NCBI GenBank assembly: GCA_045541375.1
Contig: JAZQJB010000108.1
Coordinates: 4,680-68,679 of the forward strand
From: Eubacteriales bacterium
Lineage (GTDB): Bacteria > Bacillota > Clostridia > Oscillospirales > CAG-272
Reading direction: 5' to 3'
Length of the DNA: 64,000 bases
The notes under the pieces: model-generated
The model's database searches: none
Seen by the model: only the letters and a program-made list of their open reading frames with translations
What the model was told of the DNA's origin: nothing
Shown here: piece by piece, positions 30,108-49,074 of the stretch
Position numbering within the stretch: the stretch's first letter is position 1
Layout of the letters: each line of letters opens with the position of its first letter
Position numbers and translations under genes: made by a program

Positions 30108-31400
30108 ATGGAAAATAAAATCAGAATAGGCGTTGTCGGAACGGGCAGAGGAAAGACCTTTATGAAGCCCGCATCTTGCACAGGACTAAAACTTGCTGCT
30201 GTTTGCGACCGCAGACCCGAGAAGCTTGAGGTCATCAAGTCTCAGTACGATACCGACGGCACTCTTATGACCTTTACGGATTACGACGAAATGCTCAAAT
30301 CGGATATCGACGCCGTCGTTCTTGCAAACTATTTCAACGAACACGCGGAGTTTGCCATCAAGGCTTTGCGCGCGGGTAAGCACGTTCTTTCCGAGTGCAC
30401 CGCTATGTCCACTCTCGCAGAGGGCGTTGCACTTTGCCGCGCGGTTGAAGAGACAGGCAAGATCTACATGATCGCGGAAAACTATCCCTTCACAAAGCAG
30501 CGTCTTGAGATCAAGCGCCTTTATGAATCGGGCGAGCTTGGTGAAATGCTTTACGGTGAGGCTGAATACTGCCACCCGATGTCGAACTCCACTACATATA
30601 AATATGCGCCCGGTGAATACCATTGGCGAAATCAGATCCCGTCGACCTATTACTGCACTCACGCCATCGCACAGATGATGTATATAACCGGCACTATGCC
30701 CGTTCGCGTCAACGGATTTGTTCCGCAGATCAAGGATCAGAGCTACCGCGAATATGAATTCCGTCAGCAGGATTCGGGCGGAGTTATCGTCTGCCAGATG
30801 GATAACGGAGCGGTCGTCCGCACACTTCAAGGTGCGTTCAGAACTCATTCGGGCATCGCACGTCTTTACGGTACGCACGGCGCAGCTGAGGTCGAAAGAT
30901 CGACGGGCAACGTTGTCGTTTACCACTCCGACGTAAGCCGAATGGATCAGCCCGCATACCGCTCATATGCCCCCGATTGGCCCGATTTCGGCGAGCTTGC
31001 ATCAGCTGCAGGTCACGGCGGCGGAGACTTCTGGGTACAGTATTACTTCGGCGAGGCTATCCGCAAGAACGAGCAGCCCTATCTCAACGTATACCGCGCT
31101 TGCGCAATGTCCTCGGTCGGAATCCTTGCTTGGAAGTCGGTTCTTTCGGGCGGTCAGCCCTTCGACGTTCCCAAGTGGGATGACGAGGAAGACCGCAAGA
31201 AGTATGAAAACGATACTTGGACTCCTTTCCTCAAGGAAGGCGATGACCCCGCAGACCATCCCCCTCGCGCAGTAGCTTGGAAGCCCCTTCCCGAAGCACT
31301 TGAAAAAGCAAGAGCGGCTTGGGAAGAGAATGATTACCTCGGTCTCGGCTGGTCGAAGAAGGATATTGATATGTCCTTTGATAAGGTAAAAATGAATTGA
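30108..31400 (+). CDS. Gfo/Idh/MocA family oxidoreductase (long form)
   Basis: N-terminal IRIGVVGTGRG Rossmann motif and a SECT motif region. 430 aa. Confidence 0.7.
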   Translation: MENKIRIGVVGTGRGKTFMKPASCTGLKLAAVCDRRPEKLEVIKSQYDTDGTLMTFTDYDEMLKSDIDAVVLANYFNEHAEFAIKALRAGKHVLSECTAMSTLAEGVALCRAVEETGKIYMIAENYPFTKQRLEIKRLYESGELGEMLYGEAEYCHPMSNSTTYKYAPGEYHWRNQIPSTYYCTHAIAQMMYITGTMPVRVNGFVPQIKDQSYREYEFRQQDSGGVIVCQMDNGAVVRTLQGAFRTHSGIARLYGTHGAAEVERSTGNVVVYHSDVSRMDQPAYRSYAPDWPDFGELASAAGHGGGDFWVQYYFGEAIRKNEQPYLNVYRACAMSSVGILAWKSVLSGGQPFDVPKWDDEEDRKKYENDTWTPFLKEGDDPADHPPRAVAWKPLPEALEKARAAWEENDYLGLGWSKKDIDMSFDKVKMN

Positions 31401-31405
31401 TCACG

Positions 31406-33178
31406 ATGAAAAAACGCGTATTATTACTTTTTATTGCTATATTTTGCGTTATTCTGTCATCCTGCAACGGCGGTGGTGCGGAAGAAACGACTGCACCGAT
31501 TCCCGACACTACAGCAGAACCTGTTGAAGAGGGAACAGTCCTTTTTGCTCCCGGGGTATGTGAATATCGCATAGTTTACCCCTCGGATGATACCGATGAC
31601 GAATTCAACGCCGCGCGTAAGCTGCAGGACTTTATCGAAGAGAAGTGCGGAGTCAAGCCCGAGATCGTGAGATCGAAGAACGCGGGCGGCGAAAATGCTG
31701 ATCCCGCACTCAAAGAGATCCTTCTCAGCTTTGTTGATTTTGATGAATTGGACGTTGCTATTTCCTCGATCCCTTACGGCGCGGGCGTGGCTTGCACTGT
31801 CGGCAACAAGATAGTCATCACGGGACACGAGCGCGAAGGCTTCAAGGATGCTTTTGCAAAATTTGCGGAATGGATTGAAGAAAAGACCGAAGAGGGCAAA
31901 CTTGTTCTTCCGGTTGATTTTCGGCTTACGAGCGAAAGCAGCAGCAAGAGTTATTACGAATTCAAAGACGTCCCCGGATATCCCGGCGGGATGATCGAGG
32001 ATTTTTCTTCCCTCGGCGACAAGTATTATCAAGTAACGATCTATGATACCAATGCGGAGATGTACGAGTCATACGAAAAAGTTCTTTCGGGTGATGGCTA
32101 TTCGCTTTACAGCGAAAACGAGATCGCGGGCAATTTCTATTCCACTTACACTAAGGAAGACGAAATGCTTTACTATTACTATTGCCCGAATTCGGGCGAG
32201 ACCCGCGTGATAATCGCCGGGGATGTTCTTCTTCCTTCACTTGATGAGATTGAGTACAAAAAGGTCTGTGAGCCCGCATTCATCGTGCTCTCGACTTATG
32301 ACGACTCGGGCAAGGTCTCGGGCGATGCGCAGGGCTGTATCATCCGCTTCGAGGACGGCACGTTTATGGTCTACGACGGCGGAAACAAGAACAGCCATCA
32401 GGCGATTCATATCTATGATACTCTCGTAAAATACGCTCCCGATCCGCAGAATATCACCATCCGCGCGTGGGTCTTCTCGCATTTCCACGGCGATCATACG
32501 GGCGCGTTTCAGAGCTACGTTGCAAGATACAAGAATTCGAAAACGGTAAAGATCGAATCCTTCATCTATAATTTCTGCAACACGACAAAGCAGACCCAGT
32601 GCATCAGCCCGGGTCAGATGACGAATACCGAAAACGCGATAAAGAACCTTGGTGGCAATATCCCGGTTTATAAATGCCTGACGGGGCAGATATACCGCTT
32701 CCCGGGTATGGATCTTGAGATCCTTGCATCAATGTCGGATTTCATTCCCCTCGTTATCGGCTTTGAGCGCTCCGATGCGGAAAAAGACGCGGGCGACGGA
32801 AACTCGATGAGCACGGTCGTAAGACTCATCACTCCCGAGGGCAACACCTGTATGCTTACGGGCGACTCGACTAACATTGTTCTCGATGATATGGTCGACC
32901 GCTACGGCGCGGATTATCTCGATTCGGACATCGTAACGACACCTCACCACGCCCACAACCGCGACAGCTATCGCGCGAGAAATGCGACGATAAAGTTCTA
33001 TGACGCCGTCAAGCCCGAGATCCTTGTCGTTACGTCCTCGAATATGAGTAAGTTTACCCCCACGAGTAAGTACCCTTATGAGGTCAACGTGCACGTCATC
33101 AATACCTATAATCCAGAAATATATCTGATGAACGCCGTGCGGCTTATCAGCTTGTCCACATTAAAAGAAATCAAATAA
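31406..33178 (+). CDS. lipoprotein with shared N-terminal module and a C-terminal metallo-beta-lactamase fold domain
   Basis: ATG 31406, lipobox LSSC. MBL motif HFHGDHTG and downstream TPHHAH. Confidence 0.65.
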   Translation: MKKRVLLLFIAIFCVILSSCNGGGAEETTAPIPDTTAEPVEEGTVLFAPGVCEYRIVYPSDDTDDEFNAARKLQDFIEEKCGVKPEIVRSKNAGGENADPALKEILLSFVDFDELDVAISSIPYGAGVACTVGNKIVITGHEREGFKDAFAKFAEWIEEKTEEGKLVLPVDFRLTSESSSKSYYEFKDVPGYPGGMIEDFSSLGDKYYQVTIYDTNAEMYESYEKVLSGDGYSLYSENEIAGNFYSTYTKEDEMLYYYYCPNSGETRVIIAGDVLLPSLDEIEYKKVCEPAFIVLSTYDDSGKVSGDAQGCIIRFEDGTFMVYDGGNKNSHQAIHIYDTLVKYAPDPQNITIRAWVFSHFHGDHTGAFQSYVARYKNSKTVKIESFIYNFCNTTKQTQCISPGQMTNTENAIKNLGGNIPVYKCLTGQIYRFPGMDLEILASMSDFIPLVIGFERSDAEKDAGDGNSMSTVVRLITPEGNTCMLTGDSTNIVLDDMVDRYGADYLDSDIVTTPHHAHNRDSYRARNATIKFYDAVKPEILVVTSSNMSKFTPTSKYPYEVNVHVINTYNPEIYLMNAVRLISLSTLKEIK

Positions 33179-40516: not shown

Positions 40517-40643
40517 ACAGCGGTGCTGTGATTTGATAGGTGAAAATTTGCCTTGCGAATTTTTTCAATTTTTATGCAACGGAATTATCCAAAATGCAAC
40601 TATATAAGTGAAGGGCTCTTACAAAGACGAAAGGAGGACTGAA

Positions 40644-41201
40644 ATGACGGATGAAAGATTGATTGAAATGTTCCTCTCGCGTGACGAGGGGGCGATCGCG
40701 GCGGCAGAGGAGAAGTACTTGCCGTTCTGCCATTCGGTGCTCTCGAACATTCTGCCGAGCAGGGAAGATCGCGAGGAGTGCATCAACGACGCTATGCTTG
40801 TGCTTTGGAACACCATCCCGCCCGAGAAGCCCGCGAGCTTTTCGGCGTATCTTGCAAAAATTCTCAGGACCATCGCGCTTGAACGCACACGCCGCGAAAA
40901 CGCTTGGAAACGCGGCGGACGAGTGCTCACGGTCGGCGAGGAATTTCTGCGCGATATAACCGACGGCAGAACTCTTGCGGATGACTACGAATCGAGCCAC
41001 GCGGGAAAGATCATCAACGAATTTCTCGAGGGACTGCCGAAGAATGACAGAAAGGTCTTCATTCTGCGCTATTGGTTCGACGAGGACATCTCGCGCATCG
41101 CGGTGCGTATGAATTATACCGAAAGCCGCACGAAATCTTTACTTAAACGCCTGCGCGACAGGCTCAGACTCAAACTCGAAAAGGAGGGAATAGTGGTATG
41201 A
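40644..41201 (+). CDS. ECF-type RNA polymerase sigma-70 family factor
   Basis: ATG 40644 lies 5 nt after AGGAGG. Region 2 (ERLIEMFLSRDEGAIAAAEEKY...) and region 4 HTH (ISRIAVRMNYTESRTKSLLKRLRDRL) are present. Confidence 0.75.
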   Translation: MTDERLIEMFLSRDEGAIAAAEEKYLPFCHSVLSNILPSREDREECINDAMLVLWNTIPPEKPASFSAYLAKILRTIALERTRRENAWKRGGRVLTVGEEFLRDITDGRTLADDYESSHAGKIINEFLEGLPKNDRKVFILRYWFDEDISRIAVRMNYTESRTKSLLKRLRDRLRLKLEKEGIVV

Positions 41202-42490
41202 CTGAAAAATATACCGAAGACAAAAGACTCCTCGGCGCACTTGACTACATTGACGACAAATTTATAGCGGAAGTTACTGATGATTATGAGATCTTTGATT
41301 ACGTCGGCAAACCAACCCGAAAAATGCGTTTACGCATTGCAAGGCAATATCTTGTTTATGCCGCGTGTCTTGTTCTTCTCGCCTGCGCAATGCCTATCGT
41401 AAGCTATATTGTACCGCAGATAGGAGAACTGTTCGGAGGCAACGCAGGGAATGTCGGAGACACTGAAACCCGGGACCTTGACGGTTTCGCAGATATGTCG
41501 GAGCGCGATCTTATTGAGCATATCGGTAAAGTTCCCAAAGAATTTAAAGATATAGTTCAAAATAATGCATTCAAAAGATGCTTTTATTCGGGAGATTACA
41601 TTTTTTCCTTTCCCGCTGACAGCAAAGACAGTGAGATCATAGTATTTGATAAACAATGCGAAGTTGTTGATATTATTAATTCAGAAAACGGAGTCGGCGT
41701 ATTTGGTTCTTACAGAATATATAGGTTATCTGACGGCAATTATGTTAAATTGGGGTCATATAGTTCGTATTATCGGTATATGGCTGACAGTAATACGAGT
41801 GAGCGCAAAGAAACTAAGGCATCCGTCGAAAAAATTACATCTGACGGGAAAACTGTTTTTAAAACGGAATTTGATATCCGAAACGATCTTGATTTTTTTT
41901 GCGAACTTGATGACGGATATGTAATTGCCGGTTGGGAACAAAGGTGGAGCGATACAGAAAACCAAAAGTTTTATATTTATAAACTTGATAAGTCGGGTAA
42001 TATAGTTCACCAGAAAGCGATGAGTGAAGGTATATGTAAAATGGAATGCATTGACGGTGAATTGGTCATTTATACTCGACATAGACAATTTGTCGAAAAA
42101 AAGTTTAAGGATGTATATCGTAAGCAGTATCTTGATGATTCGTTACTAATGAGATCTACCATTGATACTTTAGAACCCCCTGCTGAGTATTTGATCATAG
42201 AAGACTTTATCCCAAATTTCGATGCCGGATATGTTTCTTCGGTTATTTATTACGACGATTTTGTCCTAATTATTTCTGAACACAATACGAAGTGGTTTGA
42301 ATATGTACCGATGGTTTACAGCTCAATTCCGTCATACACCGAAACAGTCTACACAGCTTACACCTACGGCGCTGAAATAATCTGGCGCAGCGCGGTGGAT
42401 TCTACCGACTATGAAAGATTGGCAAAAGTCAAAAAAGAGTATGAAGAAGAACAGGAACGCTTCAAAAAATGGAAAAGTGAAAACGAATAA
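41198..42490 (+). CDS. anti-sigma-like single-pass membrane protein with a large extracytoplasmic domain, function unknown
   Basis: ATGA overlap with the sigma gene. Cytoplasmic N-terminal ~45 aa, TM helix (YLVYAACLVLLACAMPIVSYIV), ~350-aa AT-rich-encoded outer domain. Confidence 0.5.
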   Translation: MTEKYTEDKRLLGALDYIDDKFIAEVTDDYEIFDYVGKPTRKMRLRIARQYLVYAACLVLLACAMPIVSYIVPQIGELFGGNAGNVGDTETRDLDGFADMSERDLIEHIGKVPKEFKDIVQNNAFKRCFYSGDYIFSFPADSKDSEIIVFDKQCEVVDIINSENGVGVFGSYRIYRLSDGNYVKLGSYSSYYRYMADSNTSERKETKASVEKITSDGKTVFKTEFDIRNDLDFFCELDDGYVIAGWEQRWSDTENQKFYIYKLDKSGNIVHQKAMSEGICKMECIDGELVIYTRHRQFVEKKFKDVYRKQYLDDSLLMRSTIDTLEPPAEYLIIEDFIPNFDAGYVSSVIYYDDFVLIISEHNTKWFEYVPMVYSSIPSYTETVYTAYTYGAEIIWRSAVDSTDYERLAKVKKEYEEEQERFKKWKSENE

Positions 42491-43948: not shown

Positions 43949-44041
43949 AGTGCGTATATATTTTGCGGAAAGTGAATGCTTTGATTAATTTCTTTTGATA
44001 AATAGATCTTTACCGCTCACAATCAAACCAAGGAGAACAAA

Positions 44042-46879
44042 ATGAAAAGAATCAAGATCCCCACAACACGGGCATTGTCCTTCCTTCTGGCAATGCTCAT
44101 GCTCATCGGACTTTGTCTTACCTCCTGCCAAGGACCCGGCGGTGAGGAAACAACGGCACCGGAATCGTCCGATTCGACCACAGCGGCCCCCGATTCGACG
44201 ACCTCGGCACCCGAGACCACCACTCCCGGCGGAGATGTGGCAAAGGCGCCCTATACGGTCGAGGTAGTCAGCGAGGGCGGACTTAAGCTTAAGGACGTTA
44301 CCGTGCTCATCTATTCGGATGCAAGCCTTACCGTTATGAACGGATATGCAAAGACCGACGAAAACGGTGTGGCATCCTTCAACCTTCCCACAGGCAATAC
44401 AAGCTATCACGCAGTTATAACCGAGATCCCCGAGGGTTACGATCTCGCCGAGAGCTATCCTCTTTCGGGCAGCGAAACAAAGATCACTCTTTCCTCCGAG
44501 CTTATCCCCGAGGGAAGCCTTTCGGGCAAAAAGCTAAAGCTCGGTGACGTTATGCACGATTTCACTGTCAAGACCACCGACGGCGAAAACTTCACCCTTT
44601 CCGAGGCTCTTAAGACCAAGAAAGCGGTACTTATCAACTTCTGGTACATCAACTGCTCCTGGTGTCAGGAGGAGTTCCCCTATATGAACAGCGTATATCA
44701 GCGCTATTCCGATGATATTGCCGTTATCGCCGTCAATCCTTATGCCAGCGATACAGAAAACGCCATCAAGACCTTCAAGGCATCCAACAGCCTTGCTTTC
44801 CCCATGGCGAAGGTAGATACTACACTTGCCGATGCGTTCGGCGTAGCAGCGTATCCCACCTCGGTCGTTATTGACCGCTACGGCACTATTTCCGTTATCG
44901 AGGAGGGCGCGATCATTTCCGAAGCTCCCTTCGTTGCCGCTTTCGAGCATTTTAAGTCTGAAAACTACACCCAGCGCCTTGAACAGTCGCTTCAGGCTTT
45001 CGTTGAGATTCCCAAGCCCGACACGGATATGCCCGATCCCGCAGACGTTGCTGCTGCCGTGAACGGAAAGAACGGCGCGGGCATCACATACCGCGCGGAG
45101 ACCGGCGAAGAATACAAGGATACCATCTGGGATTTCACTCTTACCGAAAAGAACGGACAGAAGTGCCTTGTAAACACCAACCAGGAAGCAGACGGAACAA
45201 GCGCTCTGCTTTACGTTGACGTTGAGCTCAAGGCAGGTCAGGCTCTCAAGTTCGATTATTTCGCATCCTGCGAGCGCGGCGCCGATATGCTCCACGTTAT
45301 TATCGACGACGTTCAGATCTATCAGATCTCGGGCGAGGGCACGGATTGGGAGACCTGCTTCCCCTACGTTGCTATTAAAGACGGTAAATACACAATCGCT
45401 ATCGCTTATATCAAGGATTCCACCGACAGCATTGGTGAGGACAGCGTGTATATCAGAAACTTTGAGATCTGCGATAAGAAAGATGTAAACGTAGCAACTT
45501 ATATCCCCCGCAACTGTGCAACCGAGCGCGTTGCCGACGGTTACGGATACGCAAACTATGTTGACGTGGTATTCAATGAGAAGGACGGCTACTACCACGT
45601 TGGCACAGCAGACGGTCCTCTTCTTCTTGCTAACCTTATGGGTTACAAGACCCCTTTCTCCGAGGCTTCCGTATTTGACCTTGCATATGCAGGTCAGGTA
45701 GTGATCGAGGGTAAGAACTATTACGACGATATAGTTCAGTATTTCAATTATGCTTCAAACGCAACGATCAACGGCGTATGCACGGTTGATAAAACACTTG
45801 CAGAGCTGCTCAAAAAGGTAGCTTTCGCCTGCGGTCTTGAGGTCGAAAACGAGAAGCAGTGGCTTCAGATGTGCTGTTACTATGATGTTTACGGCGGAGC
45901 AGATCAGCTCACTGACCCCATCCAGGGTCTTGCGGCTCATTCCGCGTTTATTGCGGAGATGGGTAAGGATAACGTTGTGACCTACGACCGTATCATTATG
46001 CCCCGAGGCCTTCTTTACAAGTTCGTTCCCGAGGTGTCCGGCGCATACCGCATCACTTCCAACAGCGAATACCTTGTTGAGGCTTGGATATTCAACCGCG
46101 ACAGATCGATCTATTACACGTATGAAACGGGCGAGCGTATGTATGCCGATCCCAATAACTGCTCTATGGTCGTTTATTTCGAGGCGGGCAGAGATTACTA
46201 CATCGATATTGCCTTCTATGATGTATATCAGGAGGGAAGCTTCACCTTCAACATTGAATATATCGCTGAAAAATACGATCATTTCACTCTCGCATCTCCC
46301 GGATATTTCACCTTTATTGAAAGCGACGGCGTGACCATTGGCGAGACCGTTGCGGGCGGTATCGACGTTATCCTCGGCGATGACGGCTACTACCACGAGC
46401 TCCGCAAGGACGGCACAGTCGGCTCCATCGTTTATGCTGACTTTACTCAGTATACCCCTGTATTCGGTTCCACCATCATTCAGATGGTCGCTATGAACGG
46501 CTTTAACTTCAAGTATACCGAAAACGATCTTTACATTATGTATTATCAGCTCGTTTACGGCGATCAAATGAAGGAACAGCTCAAGCTCGAATGGGGTGAG
46601 TTCTATGACGAATATTATCAGACTTATAAGGTTGACGATGTTCTTGCAGGCATCTATCACGGCGGCGGAGAGGATTATTCCGCGGCAATCAACGAATATG
46701 CAAAGCTTGCCGTAGATAATCCCGAGCATCCCGAGCGCAGCGGTTGCGTTCCCGTAGACGCAAAGCTCGCAGAGATCCTTCAGGCTCTTATGAACAAGTA
46801 TACTTTCGATGACGTCGATCATTCCTGGACAAAGGTATGCTACTATTATAAGTATATAGGAGCACCTACCAATCCCTAA
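44042..46879 (+). CDS. large surface lipoprotein with a TlpA/redoxin-like thioredoxin domain (CSWC) and duplicated C-terminal modules of unknown function
   Basis: RBS AAGGAG, lipobox LTSC, S/T/P-rich linker, Ig-like domain. Thioredoxin-fold block KAVLINFWYINCSWCQEEFPYM...AYPTSVVIDRYG. The remaining ~600 aa are unrecognised. Confidence 0.7.
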   Translation: MKRIKIPTTRALSFLLAMLMLIGLCLTSCQGPGGEETTAPESSDSTTAAPDSTTSAPETTTPGGDVAKAPYTVEVVSEGGLKLKDVTVLIYSDASLTVMNGYAKTDENGVASFNLPTGNTSYHAVITEIPEGYDLAESYPLSGSETKITLSSELIPEGSLSGKKLKLGDVMHDFTVKTTDGENFTLSEALKTKKAVLINFWYINCSWCQEEFPYMNSVYQRYSDDIAVIAVNPYASDTENAIKTFKASNSLAFPMAKVDTTLADAFGVAAYPTSVVIDRYGTISVIEEGAIISEAPFVAAFEHFKSENYTQRLEQSLQAFVEIPKPDTDMPDPADVAAAVNGKNGAGITYRAETGEEYKDTIWDFTLTEKNGQKCLVNTNQEADGTSALLYVDVELKAGQALKFDYFASCERGADMLHVIIDDVQIYQISGEGTDWETCFPYVAIKDGKYTIAIAYIKDSTDSIGEDSVYIRNFEICDKKDVNVATYIPRNCATERVADGYGYANYVDVVFNEKDGYYHVGTADGPLLLANLMGYKTPFSEASVFDLAYAGQVVIEGKNYYDDIVQYFNYASNATINGVCTVDKTLAELLKKVAFACGLEVENEKQWLQMCCYYDVYGGADQLTDPIQGLAAHSAFIAEMGKDNVVTYDRIIMPRGLLYKFVPEVSGAYRITSNSEYLVEAWIFNRDRSIYYTYETGERMYADPNNCSMVVYFEAGRDYYIDIAFYDVYQEGSFTFNIEYIAEKYDHFTLASPGYFTFIESDGVTIGETVAGGIDVILGDDGYYHELRKDGTVGSIVYADFTQYTPVFGSTIIQMVAMNGFNFKYTENDLYIMYYQLVYGDQMKEQLKLEWGEFYDEYYQTYKVDDVLAGIYHGGGEDYSAAINEYAKLAVDNPEHPERSGCVPVDAKLAEILQALMNKYTFDDVDHSWTKVCYYYKYIGAPTNP

Positions 46880-46891
46880 AAGGTGACTATT

Positions 46892-49036
46892 ATGAAAAAT
46901 ACCAAGTTATTAACGATACTTATCGTTTTGATGCTCTCATTGGCGCTCGTTTTCGTCTCTTGTGAAAAAACAGGCGACGAAACTACAGCTCCCGAGGTGA
47001 CGAATGCTCCCGCAACGGATGCACCCACCGAGCCCGCAGAAGAGACGACAGCAGCTCCCGAAACTACTGCCGAAGAAGCTACCAAGGCTCCCGAAACCAC
47101 AAAAGCAGAAGAAACAACTGAAGCTCCCCACACTCATTCCTTCGGCGCTTGGAATACAGTAAAGGCTGCAAGCTGCTCCGAGGAAGGTTCTGCTGAAAGA
47201 ACCTGCTCTTGCGGAGCAAAGGAAACACAGGCTATCGCCAAGACCGCTCACCGCGACGGAGAGTGGGTCATCGATAAAGAAGCTACCGCAACCGCAGATG
47301 GCTCAAAGCATCTTGAATGCGCCGTTTGTAAGGCCACTCTCAAAACCGAGGTGATCCCCGCAACGCCTCACACTCCCGGCGAATGGATCGTGGATAAAGA
47401 GGCGACCTGCACGGAGAAGGGCGCAAGACACAGAGTCTGCACCAAGTGCGGCGAAACCACCGACACCGAGGAGATCTCCGCAAAGGGTCACAAGGAAGTT
47501 GCAGATAAAGCAAAGGATGCGACCTGCACCGAAAGCGGACTCACCGCAGGTTCTCATTGCTCGGTATGCAATACTGTCCTAAAGGCACAGGAGAGCATTC
47601 CCGCAAAGGGTCACACCGAAGAGATTAATGCATCTTGTGCTCCCACTTGTACCGCTTCGGGACTTACCGAGGGCAAGACCTGTAAGGTTTGCCGCGAAGT
47701 CCTCGTTGCACAGCAGACTGTGCCTGCAACGGGACATAAGGCAGGCGAATGGATCGTCGATAAGGAAGCGACCACTTCTTCCGCAGGATCAAAGCATCTT
47801 GCTTGCTCGGTTTGCGGTGAAACGATCAAAACAGAGCAGATCCCCATGATCGAGATCGTGAAAAAGGAATTCACAGTAACGGTCGTTGACGGATTTGGCG
47901 CTCCCATGTCCGGTGTCGAAGTATTCTTTATGAGCGGAGATAAGGAAGCCGCCAAGGCAACCACCGATAAGAGCGGAAAAGCTTCCGCGATGCTTGTTTC
48001 GGGTGACTACAAGGTCGTTGTTGAGTCTTCGGACGGTTCTTCCGCTTCGTATGACGTAAACGATGCTTCTCCCTCGATCGAGGTTCAGCTCGTTGCGCTT
48101 GCTCAGAATCCCGAAATGGTATATCCCGGTGCAACGGAAACCGATAAGGTCCTTGCCGGAGTTTACACCGTGTCCCTCGGCTCTGTCCGTGTCCCTGTTG
48201 AAAAAGGAAAGATCAGATATCTCTTCTTCATTCCCACAGAGGGCGCTATATATCATATCTATACCGATTCCGATAAGGTTGAGGTCGGCTACTATGGCGG
48301 CAGCTTCTTTGTCAGCCCCACCAATACCGGATTTGTTGATGAAAACGGTGTGCTTATCCACGAGTTCCTGCATAGCTCGGTTGGCAGCAAGGTAGTTCTT
48401 GGATTGACTTCGACTTCCGCATCTGTTGACGAATGCACCTTGACTATCGTGAAGGCTGCGGATATTGAGATCCAGGACGTTGAACGTCCTTGGGAACAGT
48501 TTGTCCCCACCCAGGTGCCTAAGGATAGAGTTGAAACTCCTGCAGGAACCATGAAATACGTTCCGATAGAGATCAATTTCTCAACAATGCAAGGCACGCA
48601 GAAGATTGAGGTAGTATATAACGAAAAAGACGGATACTATCACCTTCATACTGCAGACGGACCTGTTCTTTATGTAAAAATAACACAGTCTACACAATAT
48701 CTTGATCCTTTGTCAACTATCGTTCAGCTTACTAACATTGGTAAGTATTTCTATGACGAAAACGGAAACCTTGTCAAGAAGGAATCCTATGTTGATGCGA
48801 TATTCATTGATCCTTATCTTTATCCGGATAATAAGAATCCTTATTATTCAGCGGTAGCGGATAAGAAGTACGGTGTAGTTCCGCTGAACGAGGAGCTTAT
48901 CTATATTCTCAAAAACGTGGGTGAGGATGATTGGTATAAGAAGAACTCTCCCGACTATATCTTTGATAACTCCACTATTCCCGCAGACGTTATTCCTCAG
49001 AACGCTTGGCTCTTTGCCTGCGTATATTTCGAATAA
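46892..49036 (+). CDS. large surface lipoprotein with six His/Cys repeats and a C-terminal module paralogous to the upstream gene
   Basis: ATG 46892 follows AAAGGTG. Lipobox FVSC, T/E/A/P linker, six ~40-aa repeats (aa 83-323), Ig-like domain. The DGYYH...VPLNEELIYILK...C.YF module is shared with 44042-46879. Confidence 0.7.
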   Translation: MKNTKLLTILIVLMLSLALVFVSCEKTGDETTAPEVTNAPATDAPTEPAEETTAAPETTAEEATKAPETTKAEETTEAPHTHSFGAWNTVKAASCSEEGSAERTCSCGAKETQAIAKTAHRDGEWVIDKEATATADGSKHLECAVCKATLKTEVIPATPHTPGEWIVDKEATCTEKGARHRVCTKCGETTDTEEISAKGHKEVADKAKDATCTESGLTAGSHCSVCNTVLKAQESIPAKGHTEEINASCAPTCTASGLTEGKTCKVCREVLVAQQTVPATGHKAGEWIVDKEATTSSAGSKHLACSVCGETIKTEQIPMIEIVKKEFTVTVVDGFGAPMSGVEVFFMSGDKEAAKATTDKSGKASAMLVSGDYKVVVESSDGSSASYDVNDASPSIEVQLVALAQNPEMVYPGATETDKVLAGVYTVSLGSVRVPVEKGKIRYLFFIPTEGAIYHIYTDSDKVEVGYYGGSFFVSPTNTGFVDENGVLIHEFLHSSVGSKVVLGLTSTSASVDECTLTIVKAADIEIQDVERPWEQFVPTQVPKDRVETPAGTMKYVPIEINFSTMQGTQKIEVVYNEKDGYYHLHTADGPVLYVKITQSTQYLDPLSTIVQLTNIGKYFYDENGNLVKKESYVDAIFIDPYLYPDNKNPYYSAVADKKYGVVPLNEELIYILKNVGEDDWYKKNSPDYIFDNSTIPADVIPQNAWLFACVYFE

Positions 49037-49044
49037 AACAAAAG

Positions 49045-49074
49045 AACTCCGATGCCTCGGCATCGGAGTTTTTC
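49045..49074. terminator. bidirectional rho-independent terminator
   Basis: AACTCCGATGCC-tc-GGCATCGGAGTT followed by TTTTT. Confidence 0.8.

Follow-up and report, generated by a model that had tools for sequence, protein, structure and literature searches.

Candidate surface disulfide-reducing lipoprotein pair with an unnamed shared module in gut Clostridia

A stretch of 64,000 nucleotides (nt) on contig JAZQJB010000108.1 of an uncultured ruminant-gut Eubacteriales bacterium (assembly GCA_045541375.1; Clostridia, Oscillospirales, CAG-272), hereafter referred to as the window, encodes two adjacent lipoproteins, P0001 and P0002, which are the subject of this analysis. P0001 carries a redoxin domain of the ResA/TlpA type and two copies of a module that matches no described family, and P0002 is a non-catalytic paralogue bearing one such module on a zinc-clasp-type stalk. 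The pair probably belongs to an accessory unit that also comprises an Fe–S relay, a giant surface protease and an Opp-type peptide importer. Roughly even weight is given to the further proposal that it acts as a surface disulfide-reducing accessory of this extracellular proteolysis and peptide-uptake island. The redoxin itself is not new, as public homologues of P0001 already carry the names ‘TlpA family protein disulfide reductase’ or ‘redoxin family protein’. The novelty lies in the unnamed module, which is systematically associated with redoxins, in the conservation of the gene pair, and in the genomic context of both.

Extracytoplasmic thioredoxin-like proteins serve cytochrome c maturation, copper-chaperone reduction, spore cortex synthesis, and the repair of methionine sulfoxide, and, to our knowledge, all of these systems are fed by CcdA or DsbD. 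The pair described here belongs to a widespread set differing from these systems in that no CcdA was found in the module-bearing genomes of the family sampled and the redoxin is fused to large binding-type domains and to the unnamed module. Furthermore, gains and losses of the set coincide with those of an Fe–S/thioredoxin membrane fusion, the giant surface protease, and the peptide importer. Should the proposed role prove correct, the known repertoire would gain a hitherto undescribed domain family, a novel path for electrons to reach the cell surface, and the involvement of disulfide reduction when gut anaerobes forage for extracellular protein. The conspicuous His/Cys array of P0002, in turn, is removed as a partner of the redoxin and is assigned to a type of variable stalk recently described in an IgA protease.

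The first-pass annotation of the window, made from the sequence without database searches, had reported a gene for a 945-amino-acid (aa) protein followed after 12 nt by a second one of 717 aa. Both open reading frames (ORFs) were found as given, the first at 44042–46879 and the second being open from a GTG at 46883 to 49036, both on the plus strand. The spacing of 12 nt holds with ATG 46892 as the likely start of P0002, which is preceded by AAGGTG, lies 12 nt past the P0001 stop, and yields a protein of 714 aa; a public homologue with 98% identity is likewise 714 aa long. Residue numbers of P0002 nevertheless follow the GTG numbering (717 aa). Inspection of the operon sequence revealed no terminator between the two genes, and a hairpin at 49042–49073 closes the two-gene unit against the convergent folC gene. 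Given the 12-nt gap with its Shine–Dalgarno sequence, the lack of an internal terminator, and the terminator 3' of P0002, both genes are predicted to form one operon. For both of them, the ratio of nonsynonymous to synonymous substitution rates (dN/dS) amounted to 0.05–0.11 in comparison with three orthologous loci, indicating strong purifying selection and, hence, real and constrained genes.

The redoxin domain of P0001 was identified by Pfam families AhpC-TSA (PF00578, E 4e-17) and Redoxin (PF08534, E 5e-14). Its nearest named NCBIfam relatives were ResA, StoA, DsbE, and TlpA, all scoring well below their cut-offs (77 bits for ResA subfamily NF002854, whose cut-off is 170). Among PDB sequences, ResA and 4nmu were matched with E-values between 1e-12 and 1e-14, and in the AlphaFold2 (AF2) model of P0001, featuring a mean predicted local distance difference test score (pLDDT) of 84, the domain superposes on both with template-modelling (TM) scores of 0.86–0.90 and root-mean-square deviations (rmsd) of 1.6–2.2 Å according to Foldseek. 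The active site CSWC could be confirmed at nt 44654–44665. Residues C205, C208, E211, F212, P213, P272, and T273 are invariant in 41 homologues, and the active site thus has the ResA-like layout C-x-x-C-x-x-E-F-P together with a conserved Pro-Thr loop. We take Glu211 to occupy the position of ResA Glu80 after the CxxC motif; judged from the alignment, P272-T273 would correspond to the conserved cis-Pro loop. As had been proposed, both proteins start with a lipobox (LTSC with C29 in P0001, FVSC with C27 in P0002) following a K/R-rich n-region and a hydrophobic core. These signals were judged by pattern, and C27 is nearly invariant among 50 homologues of P0002.

P0001 accordingly combines a thioredoxin fold containing CxxC, a Pro loop plus an acidic residue, and a predicted export signal with membrane tether. 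It resembles the ResA/TlpA/CcmG/StoA-type oxidoreductases in its tethered, outward-facing thioredoxin fold, in the Glu-Phe-Pro following CxxC, and in the Pro-Thr loop. However, at 945 aa compared to about 180 aa, it contains about 650 aa of extra domains. The usual reductant is also missing: CcdA/DsbD_TM (PF02683) was found neither in the genome carrying the window, which is 82% complete, nor in 15 module-bearing genomes of the same family (see below). In the former, MsrA (PF01625), MsrB (PF01641), and the cytochrome c assembly protein (PF01578) were not found either. The lack of an assembly gene, along with the low family score, sets P0001 apart from ResA as a factor of cytochrome c maturation.

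Similarities were also noted to the pneumococcal Etrx1/Etrx2 proteins, which operate with CcdA1/2 and MsrAB2 (PMC3914529), as these represent Gram-positive lipoproteins with an outward-facing thioredoxin fold encoded beside a presumed partner. A surface defence against oxidative stress resembling CcdA–Etrx–MsrAB2, or a direct reduction of peroxide by the AhpC/TSA-like domain, would be in line with Etrx2 being among the structural matches (4hqz and 2yp6, TM score about 0.8) and with AhpC-TSA being the top Pfam family, and an anaerobic organism would gain from such a defence. On the other hand, this explanation has to do without the CcdA and Msr genes, which were not found in the genome, and the neighbour of P0001 is a module paralogue and not a methionine sulfoxide reductase. 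Moreover, the active site FWYINCSWC displays a ResA-like CxxC followed by Glu instead of PxxxTxxC, the motif in which the peroxidatic Cys of a peroxiredoxin (AhpC/TSA sensu stricto) lies. Since the large binding-type domains and the link to protease and Opp are also left unexplained, a role in stress defence is considered quite improbable.

The best Foldseek match of P0001 was the ectodomain of DipZ (Rv2874; 2hyx and 5cyy) with an E-value of 4.6e-12 and 337–367 aligned columns, accounting for residues 160–482. Both the redoxin and the following jelly roll, for which no Pfam match was obtained, are aligned. The DipZ ectodomain of Mycobacterium tuberculosis has been described as a thioredoxin-like domain followed by a carbohydrate-binding module (CBM) (Goldstone 2016, as cited in PMC7479077). 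However, DipZ carries a CcdA-like membrane domain of its own in the same chain, in contrast to P0001, a lipoprotein without a DsbD_TM match; the orientation of the domains differs (rmsd 18 Å), and DipZ lacks the module. Of the remaining non-module parts of P0001, the Ig-like stalk domain is all-beta in the AF2 model with a pLDDT of about 90, and the second beta-sandwich appears PPC/collagen-binding-like, as judged from its sequence pattern.

The module shared by both proteins is an alpha/beta unit of approximately 140–200 aa. Its occurrence twice in P0001 and once in P0002, as suggested by the first-pass annotation, is supported by BLASTP of P0001 against P0002 (E 6e-8 for copy 1 and 0.008 for copy 2) and by profile–profile comparison. 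The module profile A3, built from an alignment of 60 sequences, matched copy 1 with an E-value of 3e-36, a value that is partly circular as A3 includes copy-1 sequences; against an independent alignment of copy 2 (A5), hhalign returned a probability of 98.2% and an E-value of 3.5e-14. Copy 2 contains a long helical insertion (helix 827–861 in the AF2 secondary structure). No match to the module was found in Pfam, even at E 10, or in NCBIfam, and nothing credible was retrieved from PDB sequences, the marginal hit 2jpu (E 0.004) being judged spurious. Foldseek searches of the whole P0001 and P0002 models against PDB and BFVD recovered Ig, beta-sandwich, and thioredoxin matches only and none for the module, and a literature search yielded no publication on it. 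The regions that had been called unrecognised therefore divide into two kinds: the module indeed matches no described family (Pfam, NCBIfam, PDB), whereas the beta-sandwiches represent generic known folds.

In total, profile A3 recovered 1252 cluster representatives at E ≤ 1e-3 and 236 at E ≤ 1e-30 among 1.84 billion, and the 1252 representatives mostly belong to herbivore-gut Clostridia. To describe atypical architectures, 49 module proteins of unusual length were compared with Pfam. The companions of the module were Ig-like stalk domains, Redoxin (19/49), and Dockerin (3/49); apart from redoxin, no enzyme domain and no CAZyme (carbohydrate-active enzyme) domain was fused to the module in this set. 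ORFs such as L053:12144–13226, with similar ones in about 15 loci, encode proteins of approximately 360 aa composed of a beta-sandwich, the module, and a type I dockerin. These dockerin-bearing proteins indicate that the module is displayed on cellulosome-type scaffolds too.

Almost invariant in the module are Asp-Gly-x-Tyr-His, Gly-Pro, two Tyr, a Leu, and Trp...Tyr; conservation extends to the Asp/Asn ahead of the G-x-Y-P motif. A Cys in the final strand (W-x-x-x-C-(C)-Y) was present in all 60 module sequences, 23 of them featuring Cys-Cys. In the modules of P0001, a second Cys replaces the Tyr of G-x-Y-P, giving the putative pairs C580 with C611 and C902 with C933; the corresponding strands in the AF2 model are 579–581 and 611–617, and 902–904 and 933–939, respectively. 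The second Cys is absent from partner-type modules. The invariant Cys might itself be the redox client, the module then being a thiol-dependent binding or catalytic domain kept reduced by the redoxin in cis or next door, in parallel to TlpA acting on ScoI and Etrx acting on MsrAB. Besides the Cys pattern, the conserved Asp, His, and Asp/Asn (DGxYH and the residue ahead of G-x-Y-P) and the nearly constant association of the module with a redoxin, on the same chain or from a neighbouring gene, speak for this explanation, which overlaps with the proposed accessory role of the pair. Yet the modules borne on dockerin proteins have no redoxin on the same chain, and partner-type modules are without the second Cys of the putative pair, so that the module as redox client is regarded as rather unlikely.

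To evaluate the conservation of the pair, 80 loci were surveyed, each from one genome per species, and counts were obtained by means of profile hidden Markov models cut from our own alignments. Nearly all loci originated from metagenome-assembled genomes (MAGs) of herbivore-gut Clostridia labelled as Oscillospiraceae, Faecousia, or Acutalibacteraceae, with a few Lachnospiraceae, the closest locus being that of a goat-caecum MAG. A redoxin-plus-module gene (about 940–1000 aa) directly followed by a module-only partner was detected in 78 of the 80 species loci, and the pair occurs in several unrelated gene neighbourhoods. Being adjacent throughout such differing surroundings, the redoxin gene and its partner are most probably functionally coupled. 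Wide co-occurrence of the pair outside this genome thus bears out the coupling previously proposed for it as far as the gene pairing is concerned; the mechanism then suggested, via the Cys-rich repeats, did not withstand comparison, as outlined below. Within the window, the pair sits alone between a gene for a major facilitator superfamily (MFS) transporter and folC, and this placement is kept in relatives with 67–96% identity.

Gene families recurring around the pair were found by crude gene clustering and then checked with Pfam. In 49 loci, a third gene encodes a redoxin domain, which either stands by itself or is joined to a further sandwich-plus-module unit, and many loci contain an additional Ig lipoprotein of about 150 aa. 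A redoxin protein of approximately 500 aa was within reach in 26 loci. Furthermore, about 16 loci have a full SBP_bac_5/OppBCDF operon immediately upstream, on the strand of the pair, and in 18 the pair adjoins a giant surface protease of domain composition S8+PA+Fn3_5(+LRR_5). The protein of about 500 aa consists of a NapH-like Fer4_5 membrane domain, two ferredoxin-type clusters, a further transmembrane (TM) helix, and a C-terminal redoxin, and a polytopic protein of about 260 aa ending in CTECIGLG is encoded upstream of it. No publication on such a NapH-like/thioredoxin fusion was found in a literature search. In the genome studied here, the CxxC-tailed protein, the Fe–S/thioredoxin fusion, the Ig lipoprotein, the S8 protease, SBP_bac_5, and OppBCDF are located within about 20 kb on another contig, C23; this island extends over C23:12349–32720 (loci L094 and L096).

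Co-distribution of these parts was analyzed in a phylogenetic profile of 201 genomes of the same GTDB family, the counts being uncorrected for kinship. The module was detected in 15 genomes, representing 11 out of 97 genera. The full-length Fe–S/thioredoxin fusion was found in 16 genomes, all 15 module genomes among them, and its membrane Fe–S part alone in 14 further ones. The giant S8 protease had an orthologue, with 59% identity or more, in 13 genomes, each of them within the 15. CcdA/DsbD_TM, by contrast, occurred in 33 of the 201 genomes and in none of the 15. Four genera (g1, g3, g15, and g97) each mix genomes possessing all parts with genomes possessing none, the latter including two 98%-complete genomes of the window's own genus. 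This pattern indicates that the parts come and go together as a single accessory unit, also in genomes where they are located apart.

Taken as an accessory of the island, the pair could operate as follows. The Fe–S/thioredoxin fusion and its CxxC-tailed partner would stand in for CcdA as the source of electrons from the cytoplasm, the fusion being the likely source because no CcdA/DsbD was found in the genome. The redoxin domain of P0001 would accept electrons from the fusion, while the CBM-like sandwich and the sandwich-plus-module units may hold a substrate or partner protein. Disulfides in extracellular proteins would then be reduced prior to digestion by the S8 protease and uptake via Opp; alternatively, the redoxin may target the invariant, often vicinal, Cys of the module. 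P0002 would present a further module on a longer stalk, its His/Cys array just setting the reach of that module from the membrane. The combination of an S8+PA+Fn3 protease with SBP_bac_5/OppBCDF resembles the lactococcal-type proteolytic system (S8 PrtP/CEP plus Opp), whereas the link of protease and Opp to the pair is a genomic one. We know of no redox component in the lactococcal-type system. A more far-reaching scheme, which is put forward tentatively and appears doubtful as a whole, regards the EKDGYYH module as a new thiol-dependent extracellular domain and end client of a CcdA-independent, Fe–S-driven reducing route across the membrane; acting jointly with Opp and the S8 protease, this system would constitute a machine for ‘reductive proteolysis’, through which proteins rich in disulfides would become food for some gut Clostridia.

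Several points weigh against a role of the pair in proteolysis. The module has no structural or sequence relative hinting at an activity, and its invariant Cys could simply be buried and structural. The link to proteolysis is based on gene neighbourhood and co-distribution, for which related genomes are non-independent samples, and in the window the pair is located between the MFS transporter gene and folC, away from the island. With the genome being 82% complete, the absence of CcdA and Msr is provisional, and the family-wide exclusion of CcdA is marginal (0/15 vs. 33/186, roughly P = 0.05). In addition, the dockerin homologues and the CBM-like fold would also fit a plant cell wall target. 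If the sandwich and the module bound polysaccharide and the redoxin acted on a wall-associated substrate, the DipZ-like arrangement of thioredoxin plus CBM, the type I dockerins on some module proteins, and the ruminant-gut source would be accounted for. However, in the 49 proteins compared, no CAZyme domain was fused to the module, and it is a protease and a peptide importer, rather than genes of glycan utilisation, that are conserved next to the pair; we therefore give little credence to proteins binding plant cell walls or glycans.

P0002 is devoid of a redoxin domain. Its AF2 model features pLDDT values above 90 across residues 330–717 and of 52–88 in the repeat array. The Ig-like domains of P0001 (66–152) and P0002 (326–397) are homologous (hhalign probability 97.5%, E 6e-12), whereas the beta-sandwiches ahead of the modules show a weak likeness between the proteins (33% probability). 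A linker directly followed by an Ig-like domain had been described for both proteins; this order applies to P0001, but in P0002 the Ig-like domain comes after the His/Cys array. In Foldseek, the beta-sandwich of P0002 weakly resembled the collagen-binding domain of ColG (5iku, E 8e-4). A string HEFLH at residues 494–498 was considered as an HExxH metalloprotease motif and dismissed, being unconserved in the family.

The array of P0002 contains 17 Cys (98–311), and not 16 as counted before, along with 11 His. The putative ligands of the repeats comprise a His at the boundary, a His or Cys inside the unit, and CxxC. By phmmer, three stretches matched the Thomasclavelia ramosa IgA protease (PDB 9qa6 sequence) at residues 921–978 and 1089–1130 with an E-value of 5e-13. 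According to two papers of 2025 on that M64 protease, its regions ZBD1/ZBD2 (CTD2/CTD4) are built from hairpins that predicted zinc sites of the His2Cys2 or Cys3His type link together, and may represent a new metal-binding fold; CTD2 is rod-like according to small-angle X-ray scattering, and the ZBD domains are dispensable for catalysis and have been likened to ‘periscope’ spacer domains (PMC12237041, PMC12415215). The repeats of P0002 reach about 50% identity per unit and share the ligand patterns His...His-x2-Cys-x2-Cys and Cys3His. They differ in being arranged as six tandem units compared to two to three subdomains per ZBD, and in belonging to a lipid-anchored protein, the IgA protease being sortase-anchored; zinc sites are predicted in both.

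Repeat numbers ranged from 4 to 15 among 53 orthologues of P0002 and still from 5 to 8 among those with a C-terminal part at least 75% identical. In other species, repeats were present in just 22 of the 78 partner genes, the other 56 being without an array. In its similarity and ligand pattern, the array therefore agrees with the ZBDs of the IgA protease, and in its variable repeat number with periscope domains. The variation in number and the absence from 56 partners indicate a length-variable stalk and not a conserved redox client, and the repeats are predicted to form inter-hairpin H2C2 or C3H zinc clasps. The first-pass annotation had instead proposed that the CSWC redoxin acts on the His/Cys array of its neighbour, maturing it or keeping its metal ligands reduced, or that the pair handles metal at the surface. 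In favour of this, the genes are adjacent and predicted to be co-transcribed, the array offers 17 extracellular Cys, and thiols serving as zinc ligands must stay reduced. However, the pairing persists although most partner orthologues lack the repeats, their number is highly variable, and the repeat is also found with no redoxin paired to it, both in the IgA protease of T. ramosa and in further surface proteins encoded by this genome. In the IgA protease, moreover, a structural zinc-binding role has been predicted for these sites (PMC12237041). A coupling that runs via the Cys-rich repeats, as well as a part in metal handling, is accordingly very improbable.

Two further observations concern the repeats. 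PF26408.2, a precomputed match on the P0002 homologues P0124 and P0130, may be a recent His/Cys-repeat family. In BFVD, the entry A0A8S5QLF9 (a ‘Podoviridae sp.’ fragment with an S-layer homology (SLH) annotation) aligns to P0002 over 342 columns with 23% identity and an E-value of 2.9e-16. This match probably falls on the His/Cys array and would suggest that the repeat is common in SLH-anchored Firmicutes surface proteins.

Table 1. Features of the lipoprotein pair (window coordinates) and of the island on contig C23 (contig coordinates).
Feature	Coordinates	Strand	Basis
Promoter-like site TTGACT-17-TAAAAT with TG, in AT-rich spacer upstream of the P0001 gene	43920..43948	+	Consensus match only
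P0001, 945-aa lipoprotein: signal peptide/lipobox, T/S/P/E linker, Ig-like, redoxin, jelly roll, module 1, beta-sandwich, module 2	44042..46879	+
P0001 signal peptide with lipobox LTSC, Cys29	44042..44128	+	Sequence; C29 invariant in 41 homologues
P0001 Ig-like (SpaA/prealbumin-like) stalk domain, residues 67–152	44240..44497	+	Pfam SpaA E 3.9e-5; AF2
P0001 ResA/TlpA-like redoxin, residues 160–300	44519..44941	+	Pfam, PDB, Foldseek
P0001 CBM-like jelly-roll beta-sandwich, residues 325–482	45014..45487	+	Foldseek
P0001 module copy 1 (VVFNEKDGYYHVGTADGP ... WLQMCCYYDVYG), residues 483–620	45488..45901	+	BLASTP, AF2, profile comparison
P0001 second beta-sandwich, residues 622–748	45905..46285	+	All-beta in AF2 model
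P0001 module copy 2 (ILGDDGYYHELRKDG ... WTKVCYYYKYIG), residues 750–945, helical insertion	46289..46876	+	hhalign, AF2
P0002, 714-aa lipoprotein (717 aa from GTG 46883)	46892..49036	+	Lipobox, linker, six His/Cys repeats, Ig-like, beta-sandwich, one module
P0002 six His/Cys repeats of ~40 aa, residues 83–322	47129..47848	+	PDB 9qa6 sequence match, AF2 beta-hairpin array
P0002 Ig-like (Big_1/CarboxypepD_reg-like), residues 326–397	47858..48073	+	Pfam E 5e-8 and 2e-6, both under gathering scores
P0002 beta-sandwich, residues 398–535	48074..48487	+	AF2 pLDDT above 90
P0002 module (VVYNEKDGYYHLHTADGP ... GVVPLNEELIYILK ... WLFACVYFE), residues 536–717	48488..49033	+	BLASTP, AF2, alignment
Bidirectional intrinsic-terminator-like hairpin, 14-bp stem, T-runs on both strands	49042..49073	.	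Sequence
254-aa polytopic CxxC-tailed protein, ends CTECIGLG	C23 12349–13113
490-aa NapH-like Fer4_5/2x[4Fe-4S]-thioredoxin fusion, outward WCGPC after TM helix 317–335	C23 13126–14598
ECF (extracytoplasmic function) sigma factor	C23 island
148-aa Ig lipoprotein	C23 island
2390-aa S8+PA+Fn3_5+LRR_5 protease	C23 17361–24533
452-aa protein	C23 island
861-aa SBP_bac_5 protein and OppBCDF	C23 island

The genes of the pair feature a G+C content of 0.50–0.51 (window 44001–48000) compared to 0.45–0.47 in the flanks. Together with the absence of the pair from two genomes of the same genus, this raised value is compatible with gain or relocation. Upstream of the pair, with the minus-strand MFS gene in between, an ECF-type sigma factor translationally coupled to a 430-aa single-pass membrane protein is encoded at 40608–42490 on the plus strand. 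The sigma factor and this partner were considered as regulators common to the pair and the C23 island, but the 430-aa protein proved non-homologous to the 407-aa protein beside the C23 sigma factor, so that no link is apparent.

Two further adjacent redoxin proteins (405 aa and 191 aa) are encoded beside a GDSL lipase on another contig of this genome, at C45:5228–7045 (L095:2728–4545, minus strand). Within the window, a 593-aa lipoprotein at 31397–33178 (plus strand) has the same ‘EETTAP’ linker style as the pair, a style common to many lipoproteins of this genome, and its HxHxDH-like string (FSHFHGDHTG) suggests a metallo-beta-lactamase fold.

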